A DNA stretch of 30,532 bases from a virus (lineage: Duplodnaviria > Caudoviricetes). The notes beneath the pieces were generated by a model. That model saw only the letters and a list, made by a program, of their open reading frames with translations. It did no database searches and was not told where the DNA came from. Made by a program: the position numbers and the translations under genes. The stretch spans positions 1-30,532 of IMG/VR virus record IMGVR_UViG_3300020045_005271, one strand, 5' to 3'. Shown one piece after another: positions 5,708 to 13,110 of this stretch; position 1 is the first letter of the stretch; the number at the start of each line of letters is the position of its first letter.

Positions 5708-7865
5708 AGACAAAGATAAAGCCGATGGCGACAAAGACGAAAAGCTAATCGCGCGCGCTAAACAACGATTTACGGACGCGATGAGCGAGGAAGCGACGCA
5801 GCGCGAGGAAATGTCACGAGATACTAAATTCGTTAAGCTGGGTGGAGTGCATCAGTGGGATGACGCAGCGGTTCAGTCACGGCAAATGGTGGGGCAGGAA
5901 CGCCCGATACTTACTATCAATAGACTATCAGCGTTTATTTTTCAGGTGGTGAATGAGTTAAGGCAAAACCGCCCCGCTATCAAAATACGCCCTTGTGATG
6001 ACCACGCAGATATTGAAACCGCTGAAATTCTACAAGGCGTAATTCGCAATATTGAAAGTCAATCAAACGCTGGCATAGCATACGAAACCGCAGCAGACGC
6101 AATGGTTACTCAGGGGCTAGGGTATTTCCGCATTATCCCGCAATACATCACTAATGATTCATGGGAGCAAGAGCTAGTTATTAAGCGTGTACCAGACACT
6201 TCCAAGGTGGTTTCCGATGCTAATAGCACAGAGCCAGACGGATCAGACTATCGCTGGGGTGGAATCATGGAAGAAATACCGCGCGATGACTTTGACGAGC
6301 AGTACCCTGAAGAATCACAAGGTTGGGTTGCTTCGGGCGCAACTGATAGCGAATGGACAAATAAAAAAGTAGTCCGTATTTTTGAATATTTTGAAAAGAA
6401 AGAAACGCCTGAAAAAATCCATGTTTTAACCGATGGTCGAGTTATTTGGGATAGTGAGTTAAAGGAAGGCGACGTTATCAAGGATAGTCGCAAGTCATCA
6501 AAAACTAGCGTGATGTGGTACAAGCTTGGCGCGGATTGCGTACTTGAAAGCACCGAGCTACCAATTACCTCAATTCCGATTATTCCTTGTATTGGCAATG
6601 AAGTCTGGACAGACGGCAAGCGAACTATTTACGGCTTAACACGACACGGTAAAAGCCCACAGCAGCTGTACAATTATCAGTCTAGCTGTGAAGCCGAATA
6701 CTTAGCTCTATCGCCATTATCGCCATTTATGGCAAGCGTTGAAGCGGTACAGGGTTATAGTGACGACTACGCAGTAGCAAATAGAAGCCCAAAAAGCGTT
6801 CTTTTTTACAATGCTTATGATGAAAGCGGCAGGGCATTACCAAAGCCCGAACGCCAACAGCCAGCACAAGTACCAACAGGCATAGTTAATGCAAAAGCAG
6901 CGGCTATCGATGACATTAAAAGCTCGCTTGGTATCTATGATGCTACGCTAGGGAACAACCCAAGTGATCAAAGCGGAAAAGCGGTTCTATCATTGCAGCG
7001 GCAAGCATCACAAGGCACGTTTCACTATTCGGCTAATATGGCGCGGTCAATCCGTCAAGCAGGCAGGATATTGGTTGAATGGATACCGAAAGTCTACGAC
7101 ACCGCGCGAATCATGCGCATTATTGGTGAAGATGACGAGATTGACCACGTTAAAATTGACCCAGAACTGCAAGGCGCGAAAGGAGAAATTGAAGATGAAC
7201 GCGGCGAAATACAGAAAATATACAATTTGTCAGTTGGTCGTTACGATGTTTATGCAGATGTGGGCGCAAGTTACGCAACCAAGCGACAAGAATCAGCCGA
7301 AAGCATGATGCAATTGGTACAATCGTATCCTGATATTATGCCGATTGCTGGTGACTTGATTGTAAAAAACTTGGACTGGGCGGGTAGCGACGCAATCAGC
7401 GAACGCATGAAAAAGATGTTGCCTCCTCCACTTCAAGAGCCAGAGAAAGGACAGCAAGCACCCGATCCAGCGGCACAGCAAGCTGAACAGCAAATGGGGC
7501 AGATGGCAGACCAAATGGAACACATGAGTCAAGAAATAGCACGGTTGAGTGATGATAAAGACCTGAAAATGATGGAACTTGATATTAAGCGGTACGATGC
7601 CGAGACTAAGCGCATAAAAACTATTGCTGATATTGAAGCGGGAACGCCAGAAGGCATTGAGCCAACAACGCTTGAAATTGAAGCGCACGCTAACCAAATG
7701 ATGAACGATGAACATGCTCGTGAACTTGCGATTAAACAAGAAATACACAGGCAGCACATGGATTTAAACCCACCACAACAAACGCCGCAGGAATCGCCAC
7801 AGGGTGAAGCGGCTGAACCAGTACAAGAACCGATAGCCATTGAACAAGCAGAACCTATACAATAA
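5697..7865 (+). CDS. Portal protein, P22 gp1-like, with C-terminal coiled-coil barrel
   Basis: 722 aa; RPILTINR...NELRQNRP, SGKAV...Q, YDTARIMRIIGED, GRYDVYADVGASYATKRQE; follows terL. Confidence 0.95.
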   Translation: MATKDKDKADGDKDEKLIARAKQRFTDAMSEEATQREEMSRDTKFVKLGGVHQWDDAAVQSRQMVGQERPILTINRLSAFIFQVVNELRQNRPAIKIRPCDDHADIETAEILQGVIRNIESQSNAGIAYETAADAMVTQGLGYFRIIPQYITNDSWEQELVIKRVPDTSKVVSDANSTEPDGSDYRWGGIMEEIPRDDFDEQYPEESQGWVASGATDSEWTNKKVVRIFEYFEKKETPEKIHVLTDGRVIWDSELKEGDVIKDSRKSSKTSVMWYKLGADCVLESTELPITSIPIIPCIGNEVWTDGKRTIYGLTRHGKSPQQLYNYQSSCEAEYLALSPLSPFMASVEAVQGYSDDYAVANRSPKSVLFYNAYDESGRALPKPERQQPAQVPTGIVNAKAAAIDDIKSSLGIYDATLGNNPSDQSGKAVLSLQRQASQGTFHYSANMARSIRQAGRILVEWIPKVYDTARIMRIIGEDDEIDHVKIDPELQGAKGEIEDERGEIQKIYNLSVGRYDVYADVGASYATKRQESAESMMQLVQSYPDIMPIAGDLIVKNLDWAGSDAISERMKKMLPPPLQEPEKGQQAPDPAAQQAEQQMGQMADQMEHMSQEIARLSDDKDLKMMELDIKRYDAETKRIKTIADIEAGTPEGIEPTTLEIEAHANQMMNDEHARELAIKQEIHRQHMDLNPPQQTPQESPQGEAAEPVQEPIAIEQAEPIQ

Positions 7866-7953
7866 CCCTGATTTTATCGAAGCAGCCGAATATGCCTATT
7901 TTTTAGGCGTACTAACTAAAAAACAGTATTATGATTTGCTGAAAGGTGTATAA
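7840..7953 (+). CDS. Possible 37 aa mini-protein (TTG start; not in ORF track)
   Basis: MNKQNLYNNPDFIEAAEYAYFLGVLTKKQYYDLLKGV overlaps the portal stop; no clear RBS. Confidence 0.4.
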   Translation: MNKQNLYNNPDFIEAAEYAYFLGVLTKKQYYDLLKGV

Positions 7954-7967
7954 TTAATTTGCAATAA

Positions 7968-8053
7968 ATGACGGTGCAACGTCATAACAATTTTTATCAA
8001 ACCCGCTATATTTCTCATCGTTGCACCCGATGAGCGATGTATGCGGGTTTTTT
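7968..8053 (+). promoter_or_regulatory. Structured leader: small hairpin plus terminator-like hairpin with complementary loops
   Basis: ATGACG-GTGCAA-CGTCAT, then AAACCCGC...CTCATCG-TTGCACC-CGATGAG...GCGGGTTT and a T run. TATAAT at 7949-7954 upstream. Confidence 0.75.
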
Positions 8054-8061
8054 ATTGGGGA

Positions 8062-8232
8062 ATGGAAGTGGAAGAATTACATAATCTTTGGCAAGATAAA
8101 GAATATATGGATATGGTAGAAGAATTACCGCTAGAGCCTTATTTGGCTTTAACTAATGAGCAGTTTGAAATAGAAGAATCGCACAGGGCAACACTTTTAA
8201 AAAGCAGTGAAGAATTTGAGGCAATGCCATGA
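8062..8232 (+). CDS. Acidic mini-protein resembling a portal fragment
   Basis: The track start at 8041 lies inside the hairpin, so ATG 8062 or GTG 8068 after GGGG is more plausible. ATGA overlap with the next gene. Confidence 0.7.
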   Translation: MEVEELHNLWQDKEYMDMVEELPLEPYLALTNEQFEIEESHRATLLKSSEEFEAMP

Positions 8233-8474
8233 AAGCAATACTATTAATCGGCTTACTGCTATCCAGCACAGCCAACGCAGAAGACCCGCATTACTCATGG
8301 GACGAGCCACAACAACGCAGTGACCAACACAACTACGCCCTTGATGACTTGGAGCGATACAACGAGCAAGCGCGGGAACGAAGACAATCGCAGCGAGACT
8401 ATGACCAGCGCGAACGGCAATACCAACAGCAACAAATGCAAATGCAGCAATTACTTAATGAGTTAAGACGATGA
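8229..8474 (+). CDS. Exported Gln/Arg-rich protein
   Basis: Sec-type signal peptide MKAILLIGLLLSSTANA with an A-x-A site; GAGG RBS. Confidence 0.8.
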   Translation: MKAILLIGLLLSSTANAEDPHYSWDEPQQRSDQHNYALDDLERYNEQARERRQSQRDYDQRERQYQQQQMQMQQLLNELRR

Positions 8475-8650
8475 TCGCCCTATCCTATCCCAACTTACGC
8501 AGTGAGATGGATGATAAGCAATTTGATGATTATCATCTTTTTTTAAAACAAATAAAGCTTGAGATGAAAGAAGAAAGAAGGAGGCGGGATATTTTACAAC
8601 ATGAGAGAGAGCAAAAATTTAAGGCATGGATTAATGAGTTGAGACGATGA
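8455..8650 (+). repeat. 20 bp direct repeat pair (8455-8474 and 8631-8650)
   Basis: TTAATGAGTTAAGACGATGA vs TTAATGAGTTGAGACGATGA, 19 of 20 identical. Confidence 0.9.
8471..8650 (+). CDS. 59 aa hypothetical protein (not in ORF track)
   Basis: MIALSYPNLRSEMDDKQF...KAWINELRR; ATGA overlaps at both ends. Confidence 0.7.
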   Translation: MIALSYPNLRSEMDDKQFDDYHLFLKQIKLEMKEERRRRDILQHEREQKFKAWINELRR

Positions 8651-8982
8651 CAGAACAATGGACAATAGCAGCGAACTATGAATTTCCAGAAATAAACAAA
8701 CCCGCTTTACCACAAACAAGCTATTTACCGCCTTATGGCTACCCGCGCAAATGCAAGCTAGTCCAGGATAAATCAGAAGCTGGAGACCCGTCTTTTGCGC
8801 ATGACCAGCAAATAGAGGTCGATGGTGAGCCACTGATAACTTGCAAAGAGTTTTTATTTGAAACTGAACAAGAGGCGCATGATTATTTGCGGCAAATACT
8901 AAGACCAATGAGACAAGATATTATTAGCGTAGTAGCTCGGTTGGTTACAATATTGGAATATATAAACGAAGAAGGTAAGTAA
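8647..8982 (+). CDS. Hypothetical protein
   Basis: 111 aa, coupled to both neighbours. Confidence 0.75.
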   Translation: MTEQWTIAANYEFPEINKPALPQTSYLPPYGYPRKCKLVQDKSEAGDPSFAHDQQIEVDGEPLITCKEFLFETEQEAHDYLRQILRPMRQDIISVVARLVTILEYINEEGK

Positions 8983-9170
8983 TGAAAATCACAATTGAAT
9001 TTGAGAACCCATGTGAATTAGTTGATTTATTGCGTAAATTATCGGCTGTAATTATTAATGATGAGCCTATTTCTGTGGTAGATTTTTCCTTTAAAGGTCC
9101 TCATCCAACAATGTACACTGAACAAGATGAAACACCGATTAGTCACGACCACACAAAGGTAAACAAATGA
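8982..9170 (+). CDS. Hypothetical protein
   Basis: 62 aa, TAATG and ATGA coupling, AAGGT RBS. Confidence 0.7.
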   Translation: MKITIEFENPCELVDLLRKLSAVIINDEPISVVDFSFKGPHPTMYTEQDETPISHDHTKVNK

Positions 9171-10009
9171 CCGAGCAAACAGCAGAATCAGAACAAACAC
9201 CAGAACCACGCTACACAATCTTAAACAATGAATCCCCAGCAGAGACCGTAGAAGTTGAGCAGATACCAGCAAGCGAAGAAGTGGCAGCGGTTGAATCAGA
9301 GCCAGAAGTCGAAAGTGACGTTGAGCAAACGCCAGAGGTACGCAAGAAAGACGCACAGTCGCGCATTAGAGAACTGGCAAACAAAGCACGGGCGGCGGAA
9401 GAGCGCGCCCAAGCGGCAGAGGCGGCACTTGCAGCAAGAGCTACCCCACCAGTGGATAAGCCTAACCCAGAAGATTATGCGGGAGGGCGTTATAATGATA
9501 GTTATCAAGATGATTTAGACGCATGGCGAGACGCACAGACAGAGCAGCGTATCAGTCAGGCGTTAGTGCAAGCTGAACGTGATAAAGCGATAAGCTCAAG
9601 AAAGTCAGTAATTGCCGAACGTGAAGCGGAATTTAAAGCAGTTACGCCAGACTATGATGAAATGGTAGTTCACGCTTTGCCATTATTTGACGACCCATTG
9701 ACTAATACAGCAATTACTGAGATTGAAAATATCACAGAAATAGCCTACGCAATCGGTAAAGACCCAGAATTACTAGCACAGTTTGAGCGCATGACTCCAA
9801 GTCAACGTCTTGTTAAAATGGGTATGATGGCAGCACAAGGCATCGCATCACCAACTCAAAAAACCGTAAAAATCAGTCAAGCAGCAAAACCAATTACTCC
9901 AGTTTCAGGCGGCAGTGCGGTTTTAACAAGCAACGCAGCAATGGAAGCGGCTTTAAAAGCCGGTGATTTTGAGGCTTATAAGGCGGCTAAGAAGGCGAGA
10001 AATGAATAA
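9167..10009 (+). CDS. Capsid scaffolding protein
   Basis: Acidic disordered N-terminus, AQSRIRELA coiled coil, KPNPEDY, short basic helical C-terminus (GDFEAYKAAKKAR); lies between portal and coat. Confidence 0.85.
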   Translation: MTEQTAESEQTPEPRYTILNNESPAETVEVEQIPASEEVAAVESEPEVESDVEQTPEVRKKDAQSRIRELANKARAAEERAQAAEAALAARATPPVDKPNPEDYAGGRYNDSYQDDLDAWRDAQTEQRISQALVQAERDKAISSRKSVIAEREAEFKAVTPDYDEMVVHALPLFDDPLTNTAITEIENITEIAYAIGKDPELLAQFERMTPSQRLVKMGMMAAQGIASPTQKTVKISQAAKPITPVSGGSAVLTSNAAMEAALKAGDFEAYKAAKKARNE

Positions 10010-10151
10010 TAGAGTAGAGAACGAAAATAAAGAGCGGTTGAATTTCCGCGTAAAGCACAGCAAAATGCCTATACTAACGCATCGTAAAATGTATAGAATC
10101 GTTAATAGGCGTATGTGGAAGCGGTTAGACGCTTGCTTCTCTAAAATATAA
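10002..10151 (+). CDS. Basic 49 aa mini-protein
   Basis: MNNRVENENKERLNFRVKHSKMPILTHRKMYRIVNRRMWKRLDACFSKI. ATG 10002 overlaps the scaffold end. Confidence 0.6.
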   Translation: MNNRVENENKERLNFRVKHSKMPILTHRKMYRIVNRRMWKRLDACFSKI

Positions 10152-10161
10152 AGGCGGCAAA

Positions 10162-10407
10162 ATGACAAAAACAATATCAGAAATCACAGCAGAAGCACTA
10201 AGTATATTTGATAATGCCACAAGAGCCGATGCTATTACACGAAAAGGTGTAGAACAACTGGGTTTTACTCTAAATATTGAAGATTTTAGAGAGCGGTTTA
10301 TTCAGCCAGTAATGCGACAAACGGCTGATATTTTGATAGATAAGCGCAAAAAGAAAATTAGAAAGACTAGGCTAAGAAATATCAGGTTATCAAACAGAGG
10401 CAGATAG
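10162..10407 (+). CDS. Mini-paralog of the major capsid protein with a basic tail
   Basis: TISEITAEALSIFDN and LNIEDFRERFIQP match coat TIAKITAETLEVLEN and LNIDDFRKRFIVP. Confidence 0.8.
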   Translation: MTKTISEITAEALSIFDNATRADAITRKGVEQLGFTLNIEDFRERFIQPVMRQTADILIDKRKKKIRKTRLRNIRLSNRGR

Positions 10408-10411
10408 TCTA

Positions 10412-10440
10412 TTGACAAAAGCTAATAAATAAAGTACATT
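10412..10440 (+). promoter_or_regulatory. Sigma70-type promoter for the capsid operon
   Basis: TTGACA (10412-10417), 17 bp spacer, TACATT (10435-10440). Confidence 0.8.
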
Positions 10441-10446
10441 TGTTTT

Positions 10447-10631
10447 AAGGTGTGTTTGCCGACGGAAATCAGGCATAGATATATGCAGGAAGGACGGGGG
10501 CGCACACCGCCAAACATATCGAAGCCTAACGCATAACAGGCACTGCTTTTACCACAGAACATTAAAAAAGCGTTATATCAAGGTGTCGCGTCCTAATGAG
10601 AAATTAACTTTTTTCAATAGGGAGCAGCCAA
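10447..10631 (+). promoter_or_regulatory. Long structured 5' leader of the capsid gene
   Basis: About 185 nt non-coding with nested and mutually exclusive stems; GGAG RBS before ATG 10632. Confidence 0.55.
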
Positions 10632-11885
10632 ATGGCTAACCAATTACTTACCATCGCCAAGATCACAGCTGAAACGCTTGAAGTCTTGGAAAACCAACTC
10701 ACATTCTCTAGTAACGTAAACCGCGAATACGACAGCCAATTTCAGGCTGGCGGTGGTCAAATCGGCGCGACTGTAAACGTCAGAAAGCCAACTCGCTACA
10801 TGGTCTACAAAGGCAAGCAGCTTGTACCTCAAAACAGTATTGAAACCTATGTGCCTGTCACACTGACAGAGCAAGCTCAAACTGCAATGTCTTTTTCAAG
10901 CGTCGATTTAGCTTTAAATATTGATGACTTTAGAAAACGCTTTATTGTTCCAGCAGCCGCAGCAATTGCTAACCAAATCGACTACGATGGGCTACAACTT
11001 TACAAATCAGTGTATAACTTTGTCGGCACTGTCGGCGAACTGACAGGCACACCGACCAGCGCACAAGCATTACTGGCAACGGCACGCGGTCAACAAAAGC
11101 TAGACGAAAACGCAGCACCACGAGACGGCAAGCGTTCAGCTATTATCAATCCAGCTACGCAATCCGGCTTAGTCACCGCTAACGCTACCCTGTTCAATCC
11201 GCAGCAAACCATTTCAGACATTTATAAAAATGGCAGAATGGGTTCAAACGTATTGGGCTTTGATTTTTACATGGATCAAAACGTACCGATGCACACAGCC
11301 GGCACACAAAACGGCACATTCGCAATCAGTGCAGCGGCTCAAGGAGGTAGTAATACTGTACAAGCGGATGCAACTACGCCATTCACATTGGCAACAGCGG
11401 CAATCACCGGCACATTGACAGCGGGTACAGTTTTCACTATTGCTGGCGTTTATGCGGTTAATCCACAATCTCGTGTTTCAACTGGCTCACTGCAAAACTT
11501 TGTTGTTATGGCTGATACTTTGGCAAGTGCAACATCTGTTTCAATTTTGCCGTACCCAATCTTTAGCGGTGCGTTCCAGAATGTTACCAGTACCACGAAC
11601 ACAATCGCAGCGGCGGCTACCTGTACCATTTTGAGTGGCTTAAACGCAGCACAAGCACCGCAAAACATCTTGATGCACAGAGACGCGTTTACGCTTGCAA
11701 GTGCTGACTTACCTTTGCCCGGTGGTGTTGATACAGCTTCACGCATGGCTTCAAAAGCGTCCGGACTGTCCTTGCGTATGATTAGTCAATATGACATCCA
11801 ATCAGACAATTACTTTACCCGTCTTGATGTATTGTATGGCTGGAAGGCAATCTATCCAGAATTGGCGGCTCGTCTTACAGGCTAA
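10632..11885 (+). CDS. Major capsid protein, P22 coat (gp5) family
   Basis: MANQLLT...LENQL, GATVNVRKP, DDFRKRFIVPA, GTVFTIAGVYAVNP, C-terminal RLDVLYGWKAIYPELAARL. Confidence 0.96.
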   Translation: MANQLLTIAKITAETLEVLENQLTFSSNVNREYDSQFQAGGGQIGATVNVRKPTRYMVYKGKQLVPQNSIETYVPVTLTEQAQTAMSFSSVDLALNIDDFRKRFIVPAAAAIANQIDYDGLQLYKSVYNFVGTVGELTGTPTSAQALLATARGQQKLDENAAPRDGKRSAIINPATQSGLVTANATLFNPQQTISDIYKNGRMGSNVLGFDFYMDQNVPMHTAGTQNGTFAISAAAQGGSNTVQADATTPFTLATAAITGTLTAGTVFTIAGVYAVNPQSRVSTGSLQNFVVMADTLASATSVSILPYPIFSGAFQNVTSTTNTIAAAATCTILSGLNAAQAPQNILMHRDAFTLASADLPLPGGVDTASRMASKASGLSLRMISQYDIQSDNYFTRLDVLYGWKAIYPELAARLTG

Positions 11886-11901
11886 AATCACGCAACCTAA
11901 C

Positions 11902-11924
11902 GCCACGTTTAACCGCGTGGCTTT
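11902..11924 (+). terminator. Weak hairpin/attenuator after the coat gene
   Basis: GCCACG / CGTGGC stem with only a short T run. Confidence 0.4.
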
Positions 11925-11947
11925 ACCAATTTTAAGAGGATTTAATC

Positions 11948-12319
11948 ATGCCAGATCAAGGCGCAGCTCCAAACGTAATTACAGCGGCAATTCCAAATTT
12001 TGAACATTTAACGATGGTCTCGCTCGCACTGTCACCCGCTGCGTGTGGTGCAGCAACAGCAACCGAACAGACCTTTACAGTAACAGGTTTATCAATGGGC
12101 GATTCTCTACAAGCCCGTGATGTGATTTTAAACGTGTATAAACCGACTGCACAGACTGGTTTATCCATTGGCTCGTGTCGCGTTAGTGCGGCTAATACCA
12201 TTTCTATTCAGTTTATCAATCCAACCGCTGGCAGCATCACGCCAACAGCGGCAGAAATTTATACGATTACCGTGTGGCGACCATGCCAATTGGCACAAGC
12301 TAACGCAACCGTAGTTTAA
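11948..12319 (+). CDS. Virion protein, probable capsid decoration protein
   Basis: Beta-rich 123 aa (ATEQTFTVTGL...GD, RVSAANTISIQFIN) immediately after the coat gene and before a terminator. Confidence 0.65.
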   Translation: MPDQGAAPNVITAAIPNFEHLTMVSLALSPAACGAATATEQTFTVTGLSMGDSLQARDVILNVYKPTAQTGLSIGSCRVSAANTISIQFINPTAGSITPTAAEIYTITVWRPCQLAQANATVV

Positions 12320-12331
12320 AAGCTAGACAAT

Positions 12332-12361
12332 CGCTCTCACTTTGCACGGTGAGAGCGTTTT
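12332..12361 (+). terminator. Rho-independent terminator
   Basis: CGCTCTCAC / GTGAGAGCG followed by TTTT. Confidence 0.75.
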
Positions 12362-12381
12362 AACATCAAAAAGGGCTAGTC

Positions 12382-13110
12382 ATGGCAACAAATACAGTAC
12401 GCGATTTAATCCAAGACAGTCTAACTCAGCTTATGGTTTACTCGCCCGATGTCATCCTGACGGCTGAAGAATCCAATACCGCGTTACGCACACTGAACAG
12501 TTTAATCGAGTCGTTAGCTAACGAATCATTTACGATTAACACGGTCACAAAAGAAAGCTTTAATTTAGTTGGCGGTCAAGCGACTTACACATTCGGCACT
12601 GGCGGCAATTTCAACAGCACGCGACCCATTAGCATTGAAGCAGTCACAACCGCGATCACTGGCACGGCTGGAAACATCGATTTCCCCGTTGTCTTAGTAA
12701 ATTATGACGACTACGCGGCTATTAAACTCAAAACACTGCAAACTAATTACCCTCAATACTGCTACCCTGACGGCAATTACCCACTAAATAATCTCACATT
12801 TTACCCTGTGCCATCGAGCGCGATACCTGTCACGATTTACAGCTATAAACAGATTAGTGAGTTCGCCACTGTGACAGAAACCGTAAGCTTCCCGCAAGGG
12901 TATTACCGTATGCTTGTGGCTTTGTTAGCGATTGAGCTCGCACCAAGTTACCAAGTGCAAGCAAGCCAAAACATCATAGATATTGCGCACCAAGCTAAAC
13001 GTAACATTATGCGCACTAATGCAAAATCGTTGACTATGCAAACAGATCCGGTTTTGATGGGAACAGGTGGGCGGTATAATATTTTTAGCGACAAGATAGG
13101 TTCACGCTAA
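12382..13110 (+). CDS. Head-tail adaptor (P22 gp4-like)
   Basis: TVRDLIQDSL...ALRTLNSLIES and FPQGYYRMLVALLAIELAPSY; position after the coat gene. Confidence 0.85.
   Translation: MATNTVRDLIQDSLTQLMVYSPDVILTAEESNTALRTLNSLIESLANESFTINTVTKESFNLVGGQATYTFGTGGNFNSTRPISIEAVTTAITGTAGNIDFPVVLVNYDDYAAIKLKTLQTNYPQYCYPDGNYPLNNLTFYPVPSSAIPVTIYSYKQISEFATVTETVSFPQGYYRMLVALLAIELAPSYQVQASQNIIDIAHQAKRNIMRTNAKSLTMQTDPVLMGTGGRYNIFSDKIGSR

Follow-up and report, generated by a model that had tools for sequence, protein, structure and literature searches.

The 81-codon open reading frame (ORF) that lies between the scaffold and coat genes of an uncultured P22-like phage is, judged from sequence comparison, a real, selected, coat-derived mini-gene, and one of at least two types of cut-down coat that occupy a variable slot in a single clade. 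The window was the whole 30.5-kb contig of this phage, and its head module was analysed, in which the order is terminase, portal (PF16510), scaffold, coat, adaptor, closure and ejection genes; a gene for a RecT-like annealing protein lies on the strand opposite to the head module. The slot and its surroundings comprise the following features.

9167..10009, + strand: head scaffolding protein (phrog_8865, E 2e-25; also phrog_648), the left border of the slot
10002..10151, + strand: 49-aa basic ORF, a separate slot cassette that is not coat-derived
10151..10164, + strand: cassette junction motif including the mini start codon, with a single exact match in the window
10162..10407, + strand: type-1 mini-coat ORF, 81 aa, coat-derived, between scaffold and coat
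10412..10440, + strand: sigma-70-like promoter directly 3′ of the mini stop, the right border of the slot
10632..11885, + strand: P22-like major capsid (coat) protein, 417 aa (PF11651, E 2e-38; phrog_283, E 2e-79)

The promoter was the best site (10/12) within 7800-12400, and its −35 box could be aligned in 13 relatives, with a single change in one. The junction motif also ends the scaffold gene in relatives and was seen at slot-gene starts in L001-L004 and L146 (L-numbers denote relative loci; P0002 and P0004, below, are type-1 relative proteins). The 49-aa basic ORF, for which Pfam and PHROG scans gave no match, has a dN/dS of 0.10 and a second copy in L003 (3618-3767), where no mini gene accompanies it. 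A second run of small ORFs that differs among relatives lies between portal and scaffold at 8041-9170 of the window; coat-derived pieces were sought in this run and none were found.

Coat origin of the 81-codon gene

The alignments show that the ORF was copied from the coat gene of this phage and has since lost an internal part. The counts given in a preliminary description of this DNA proved exact: residues 4-18 of the mini match coat residues 7-21 at 8 of 15 positions, residues 37-49 match coat 95-107 at 10 of 13, DNA at 10271-10302 is identical to that at 10915-10946 at 27 of 32 positions (the gene's best 32-mer match elsewhere in the window), and 12 of the last 21 residues are K or R. The Smith-Waterman score of mini against coat was 58, a value that none of 2000 shuffles reached (maximum 50), the next-best frame in the window scoring 39. 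BLASTP of mini and coat returned E values of 3e-5 and 8e-4, a hidden Markov model (HMM) of 85 coats, run over 27,276 six-frame segments, picked out the mini ORF with an E value of 0.0017, and profile-profile comparison matched mini residues 34-56 with coat 92-114 at 94.9%. When a 56-coat profile was scanned at family level, the N-arm block fell at coat 7-16 and that of the spine at coat 95-108, in each case with 0 of 300 column shuffles as good. The parts of the gene are as follows.

10171..10215, + strand: mini residues 4-18, a copy of the coat N-arm helix (coat 7-21), predicted as a helix at low confidence
10264..10329, + strand: mini residues 35-56, a copy of the coat spine-helix start (coat 93-114), from sequence and profile comparison
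10342..10404, + strand: mini residues 61-81, the Arg/Lys tail ending in NRGR, conserved in all three type-1 members

The spine segment retains the coat-family residues L95, F100, F104, I105 and P107. The Arg/Lys tail is predicted to continue the spine helix; a coat origin for it, including descent from the C-terminal strand of the coat, was ruled out (268 and 98 of 300 shuffles).

A further block had been matched to coat 40-50. Mini residues 29-39 agree with this stretch at 5 of 11 positions, and across the three members the linker block is at chance (212 of 300 shuffles), its best place in the family scan being coat 77-89 and the linker of the third member aligning with coat profile positions 78-92, on the strand that precedes the spine; in these alignments the likeness to coat 40-50 holds for the window sequence only. 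The deletion, previously put at about 45 residues, is better drawn from about coat 22 to 78-94, or 55-70 residues, and by P22 domain limits the skipped part covers the E-loop, as had been inferred, plus the F-loop. Coat parts beyond the first half of the spine helix are also missing, and the mini is without a complete HK97 fold, having no E-loop, P-sheet, A-domain or I-domain. No Pfam family was found for the mini at E 0.01 or 1, the gathering score of PF11651 not being reached (the window coat itself scores 132.8 bits), and PHROG gave no match to type 1. AlphaFold2 modelling of type 1 from three sequences produced two helices without confident packing (pTM 0.41), the N-terminal helix at pLDDT 50-60 and residues 39-78 as one helix at pLDDT 87-97; a search of BFVD with this model returned nothing under E 5. 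A special residue-level likeness of the mini to its own coat was considered and rejected, other coats of the clade matching equally well. On the evidence of these comparisons, the mini descends from the coat family yet is not a coat-family member by fold.

Type-1 relatives and selection

Two further type-1 proteins were recovered. P0002 (88 aa, 61% identical to the mini) was the sole match in a word-based search of 5.8 billion proteins, and its gene lies in L001 directly after the scaffold stop and upstream of the coat gene. P0004 (75 aa, 38% identical, E 6e-6) came from HMMER, run in full over 1.84 billion representatives; its source is a different one, and it is encoded on a 624-base contig. 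A profile of the three type-1 members found no others in protein databases, scans of viral and metagenome contigs gave nothing beyond L001, no type-1 relatives were present among 50,697 annotated phage records, and the best ESM Atlas match to type 1 (0.85) fell under the bar and gave no family. The N-arm piece and the start of the spine are present in all three members, as is a tail that ends in NRGR, and the final 22 residues of every member have a net charge of +10 to +11.

A dN/dS estimate had been suggested, and for the window and L001 mini genes it was 0.39 (bootstrap 0.19-0.66; Fisher p 0.002), that is, below 1, compared with 0.12 for the coat and 0.14 for the scaffold; codons 1-50 alone gave 0.52, on few changes. 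Between these two genes the fewest changes fall in the spine segment, with two amino-acid changes and no synonymous change in 14 codons, synonymous sites in the tail are saturated, and a 21-base indel is in frame. In neutral simulations (3000 runs, transition bias up to kappa 4) both frames stayed open in 7-13% of runs and pN/pS was as low in 0.4-4% of those, so that the joint neutral chance of open frames and low pN/pS is about 0.5% or less. Taken together, these values argue for real purifying selection on the mini, weaker than on core genes and strongest in the tail, as estimated from one DNA pair. Decay in relatives, which had been named as the mark of a recombination scar, was absent from two of three relatives; the third copy, in L002, is frameshifted.

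An improbable alternative is that the protein works through a single long basic helix, which would bind nucleic acid or an acidic protein of the host, and that the coat pieces mimic nothing and supplied only a start site and a helical frame. It would suit the prediction of residues 39-78 as a single helix, the charge, hydrophobic spacing and last four residues of the tail, which are conserved in all three members, and the saturated synonymous sites there, and small size, basic charge and selection are likewise features of the 49-aa cassette next to the mini. However, coat-like motifs persist in the 38%-identical member, a three-sequence search matching the coat family at E 3.7e-7, and it is the spine segment that has changed least between the window and L001.

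The slot in relatives and the type-2 mini-coats

Loci were gathered by searching viral, metagenome and genome collections for the coat, with the best 80 of 112 and the best 80 of 321 taken in two of these searches. At least 140 distinct loci with 700 or more bases upstream were obtained, of which 14 have coats that are at least 70% identical and 126 are more distant; L064, with 678 bases upstream and its slot fully visible, was added, giving 15 close relatives with the window counted. One dataset number is common to seven of the 15 contig names, and these are therefore not independent samples. A clear coat-derived slot gene was present in 6 of the 15, type 1 in the window and L001 and a longer type 2 in L002, L004, L064 and L146. 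L002 additionally carries a frameshifted type-1 hybrid, the type 2 of L004 has a stop near its end, and that of L146 is fused to another slot cassette. Weaker coat scraps (E 0.24) were found in the slot of L007 and a 20-codon remnant in L062, while the slot is empty in four relatives (L005, L148, L149, L150) and holds unrelated ORFs only in three (L003, L006, L063). The slot is swappable and the mini dispensable in the clade. Each of the six clear slot genes has both the N-arm and the spine start, and slot-gene starts overlap the scaffold stop in L001, L002, L004, L064 and L146.

Other variable elements were observed in these relatives. A slot cassette of about 120 aa with a weak GatB/Yqey-like end occurs in L003 (3244-3621), in L063 (2416-2778) and as the C-terminal half of the L146 gene, where it is joined to the type-2 mini; its match to PF02637 (E 4.5e-4) is below the cut-off. 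The 123-aa gene that comes after the coat has three tandem paralogs in L006 (5330-6421) and L007 (5339-6430), and inserted between the coat and the next gene of L004 (5721-6458) is an ORF which, from its motif, we take to be HNH-like.

The scan of the 126 distant loci covered frames under 260 residues within 3-4 kb, and a separate coat-derived ORF upstream was found only in L135.

L135 1545-1838: ORF of 97 codons before the scaffold, a leader joined to the coat spine-helix start

The leader of this ORF is presumably a twin-arginine-like motif. Candidate mini genes in L017, L020 and L082 were set aside and read as the first parts of interrupted coats, and MW202674 (L043 2501-4016) was rejected as a coat duplicate and is likewise an interrupted coat. 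In these four loci the coat is interrupted near its N-terminus by inserts of a few hundred bases, possibly introns. One bacterial genome (G356:C45; L229, L233, L234) contains three full-length P22-like coat paralogs in tandem.

The type-2 mini-coats are located as follows.

L002 3719-4147: type-2 mini-coat
L004 3722-4126: type-2 mini-coat
L064 76-507: type-2 mini-coat
L146 2043-2480: type-2 mini-coat

By the coat HMM, type 2 (134-146 residues) consists of the N-arm, the spine helix and C-terminal coat strands, and its profile-profile match to the coat was 98.1%. The four members are 27-33% identical, with dN/dS about 0.2. AlphaFold2 modelling from the four sequences gave pLDDT 85 and pTM 0.82, and a structure search was topped by HK97-fold shells (Z 8.1, rmsd 3.5, 117 aligned), with a VIA Z of 7.7 against Sf6 (rmsd 5.2, 122 aligned) and a Z of 6.9 against P22. 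These Z values are middling, yet consistent with the sequence evidence, and type 2 is predicted to be a bare HK97 P-domain without the A-domain and E-loop. The matches of the minis fall on the N-arm, the spine and, for type 2, the C-terminal P-domain strands, not on the A-domain.

The type 2 of L002 was the only slot mini with a PHROG match (phrog_283, E 1.5e-4). The four type-2 members were placed beside the coats of the clade and apart from 76 distant coats (SH-aLRT 98), with terminal branches of 0.8-2.7 compared with 0-0.14 for the coats of the same phages, in a quick tree of 98 columns with long branches in which type-2 monophyly had a support of 52 and is not claimed. Types 1 and 2 may share one origin (56%). 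Only full coats matched type 2 among the 50,697 annotated phage records, and in 401 + 401 bacterial genomes (one unscored) all matches to the type-2 profile lay within full-length coat frames. The ESM Atlas returned 26 PF11651 matches to type 2, the top three of which (127-144 aa, at 0.93-0.94) may be free-standing minis or contig-end fragments, and a fold search of BFVD matched small unnamed phage proteins of 116-191 aa, such as A0A6J5NY35 and A0A6B9WTQ7; both sets are to be taken as leads only. Type 2 is arguably a stronger target for study than the window ORF.

The damaged copies bear on another reading, to which we give little credence: that illegitimate recombination of the slot with the coat gene beside it gave rise to the ORF as a by-product, which now drifts without function. 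The frameshift in L002, the stop in L004, the remnant in L062 and the scraps in L007 are in keeping with such an origin, as are the RecT-like annealing protein of the phage, spine-segment DNA without synonymous change, the pattern expected from gene conversion, and a family of just three members in 5.8 billion plus 1.8 billion proteins. A drifting relic is harder to square with the dN/dS of 0.39, the open frames and in-frame indel, the low joint neutral chance, the same ends in the 38%-identical member, and a type 2 that keeps a confident fold at 27-33% identity under a dN/dS of about 0.2.

Candidate functions and known systems

Tentatively, and with somewhat less than even confidence, we favour the interpretation that the mini, dispensable and unable to assemble, imitates the face of the coat on which the scaffold docks. 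An assembly-incompetent coat mimic had been proposed in the preliminary description, and this proposal is supported by the missing A- and I-domains, E-loop and P-sheet together with selection in relatives. Among the three functions suggested there, scaffold binding fits best because the coat elements touched by the scaffold in P22 are the N-arm and, where the spine helix begins, R101; immune decoy suits type 2 better, and the case for a regulator of leader RNA is weak. According to the available text of PMC9965877, scaffold R293 and K296 bind coat D14, E15 and E18, S285 binds N4 and Y292 stacks on R101, and the same coat residues (N4, D14, E15, E18 and R101) are given there and in PMC12005531 as the contacts of the scaffold hook. 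The spine helix has R101 at its amino end, and binding to the scaffold is impaired by the change R101C, as described in 10.1101/2022.12.13.520362. Profile positions 102-394 align with 98-416 of P22 chain 8gn5_A, which, from alignment ranges only, places R101 inside the stretch that the mini retains. Acidic residues are preserved in the mini at coat E14 and E20 but not at coat E17, and the third type-1 member is without an acid at coat E14; coat positions 101 and 103 are R in the window mini and K/Q and R/T in the other two members. Since the retained pieces are those contacted by the P22 scaffold and are kept in every clear slot gene, and since slot-gene starts overlap the scaffold stop, mimicry of the docking face is favoured.

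Under this docking interpretation, the mini would be translated by coupling to the upstream gene and would bind the C-terminal hook of the scaffold while being unable to build a shell. The outcome may be a tuning of prohead nucleation, or the basic tail, which probably binds nucleic acid, may be carried into the prohead. Several observations speak against such a role. The selection signal comes in large part from the tail, which does not stem from the coat, and the helices of the model are unpacked, so that one joint surface is not supported (pTM 0.41). The acidic N-arm residues are partly lost, and relatives include empty slots, unrelated genes, the frameshifted L002 copy and the L004 stop. 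The motive for a phage to soak up its own scaffold is not obvious, and genes that evolve so fast and patchily are more typically engaged in conflict with a host.

The RNA between the promoter and the coat gene was also considered.

10445..10631, + strand: structured coat leader (z −4.45, 0 of 200 shuffles), with a conserved core at 10519-10631

This leader, a candidate new cis-regulatory RNA, shows compensatory changes in 3 of 16 pairs and has no match in Rfam. It lies upstream of the coat in the window, L001-L006, L062-L064, L146, L148 and L150, and its 5′ part takes swappable inserts, one common to the window and L003 and a longer one to L004 and L005. That the Arg-rich tail binds the adjacent leader and regulates coat translation strikes us as very unlikely. 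The leader is structured and covarying, the tail is rich in Arg and Lys, and the P22 scaffold is reported, in the available text of 10.1101/2022.12.13.520362, to autoregulate translation via its N-terminus. Nevertheless the leader core occurs in 13 of 13 aligned phages, just two of which have an intact type-1 gene, and this independence of the mini makes the reading weak; in addition, the 5′ insert of the window is also found in L003, which has no mini, and is absent from L001, which has one.

A role in host conflict would follow if the minis were decoys that, made from the upstream operon, occupied host sensors of unassembled capsid protein without triggering them, an account that we consider rather unlikely. 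The slot genes are indeed accessory, exchangeable and, from the type-2 branch lengths, fast-evolving, and type 2 keeps the P-domain sheet and spine that CapRel-SJ46 is modelled to contact, and where escape changes lie, in PMC9712102. There is also a precedent in DSAD1, which, as summarized in the available text of PMC10973363, blocks the tail-tube sensor DSR2. Type 1, however, is without the P-sheet and far too small for the CapRel interface of about 1,800 square angstrom given for that model; it also lacks the A-domain bound by Avs7, Avs8 and Avs10 (10.64898/2026.01.04.697583, available part) and the P- and E-loop whose residues Thoeris depends on (PMC12578639, available part). In terms of sensor-bound surface, type 1 retains none for Avs7/8/10 and Thoeris and half for CapRel, and type 2 retains the P-domain contacts of CapRel. 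A fragment could, moreover, trigger a sensor instead of blocking it. More broadly, it is possible, though doubtful, that the clade keeps a swappable slot of cut-down coats as soluble decoys of unassembled capsid, directed against host sensors or rival scaffolds, and that this is one case of an undescribed, repeatedly evolved class of viral capsid mimics.

Capsid proteins are among the main triggers of bacterial immunity and have little freedom to change, and type 1, as a proposed docking face, and type 2, as a bare P-domain, could serve as small reagents for the coat surfaces read by scaffolds and sensors. The minis show the HK97 fold pared down and reused within phage genomes, and the results suggest that the short 'partial capsid' matches usually discarded as fragments include real genes.

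An internally deleted coat copy or a capsid-derived decoy was not found in the open-access literature, that was searched, including the available text of the counter-defence review PMC13728456. DSAD1 is described in the accessible part of PMC10973363 as a small phage protein that imitates the tail tube protein and occupies the same DSR2 pocket, its likeness thus being one of pocket occupancy, whereas the minis descend from a coat gene. P22-like coats (PF11651, phrog_283; Sf6 5l35/7sp4, CUS-3 8skg, P22 5uu5/8gn5) are the source family of the mini's two segments; type 2 keeps their P-domain fold, and the mini departs from them in its length (81 versus 417 residues), its added basic tail and its want of a Pfam or PHROG match. 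The cellular Family 4 'A-domain' encapsulins consist of a free-standing A-domain of the HK97 fold. Type 2 is likewise predicted to be a single domain cut from this fold, but the minis are without the A-domain and occur in phage, type 2 being the complementary P-domain and type 1 two helices. T4 gp24 (PDB 1yue) is, we assume, a vertex protein and a full-length capsid paralog within the shell. The Ccm of SaPIbov5 is, in the available text of PMC8569155, a full-length capsid paralog that is encoded by a satellite against its helper and enters the shell. The minis resemble Ccm and gp24 in being a second, diverged copy of a capsid protein, and those two act on head assembly. Unlike Ccm and gp24, which have the whole HK97 fold for capsomers and enter the shell, type 1 has no such fold, type 2 is predicted to be without the A-domain and E-loop, and both are fragmentary, accessory and encoded beside the phage's own coat gene.
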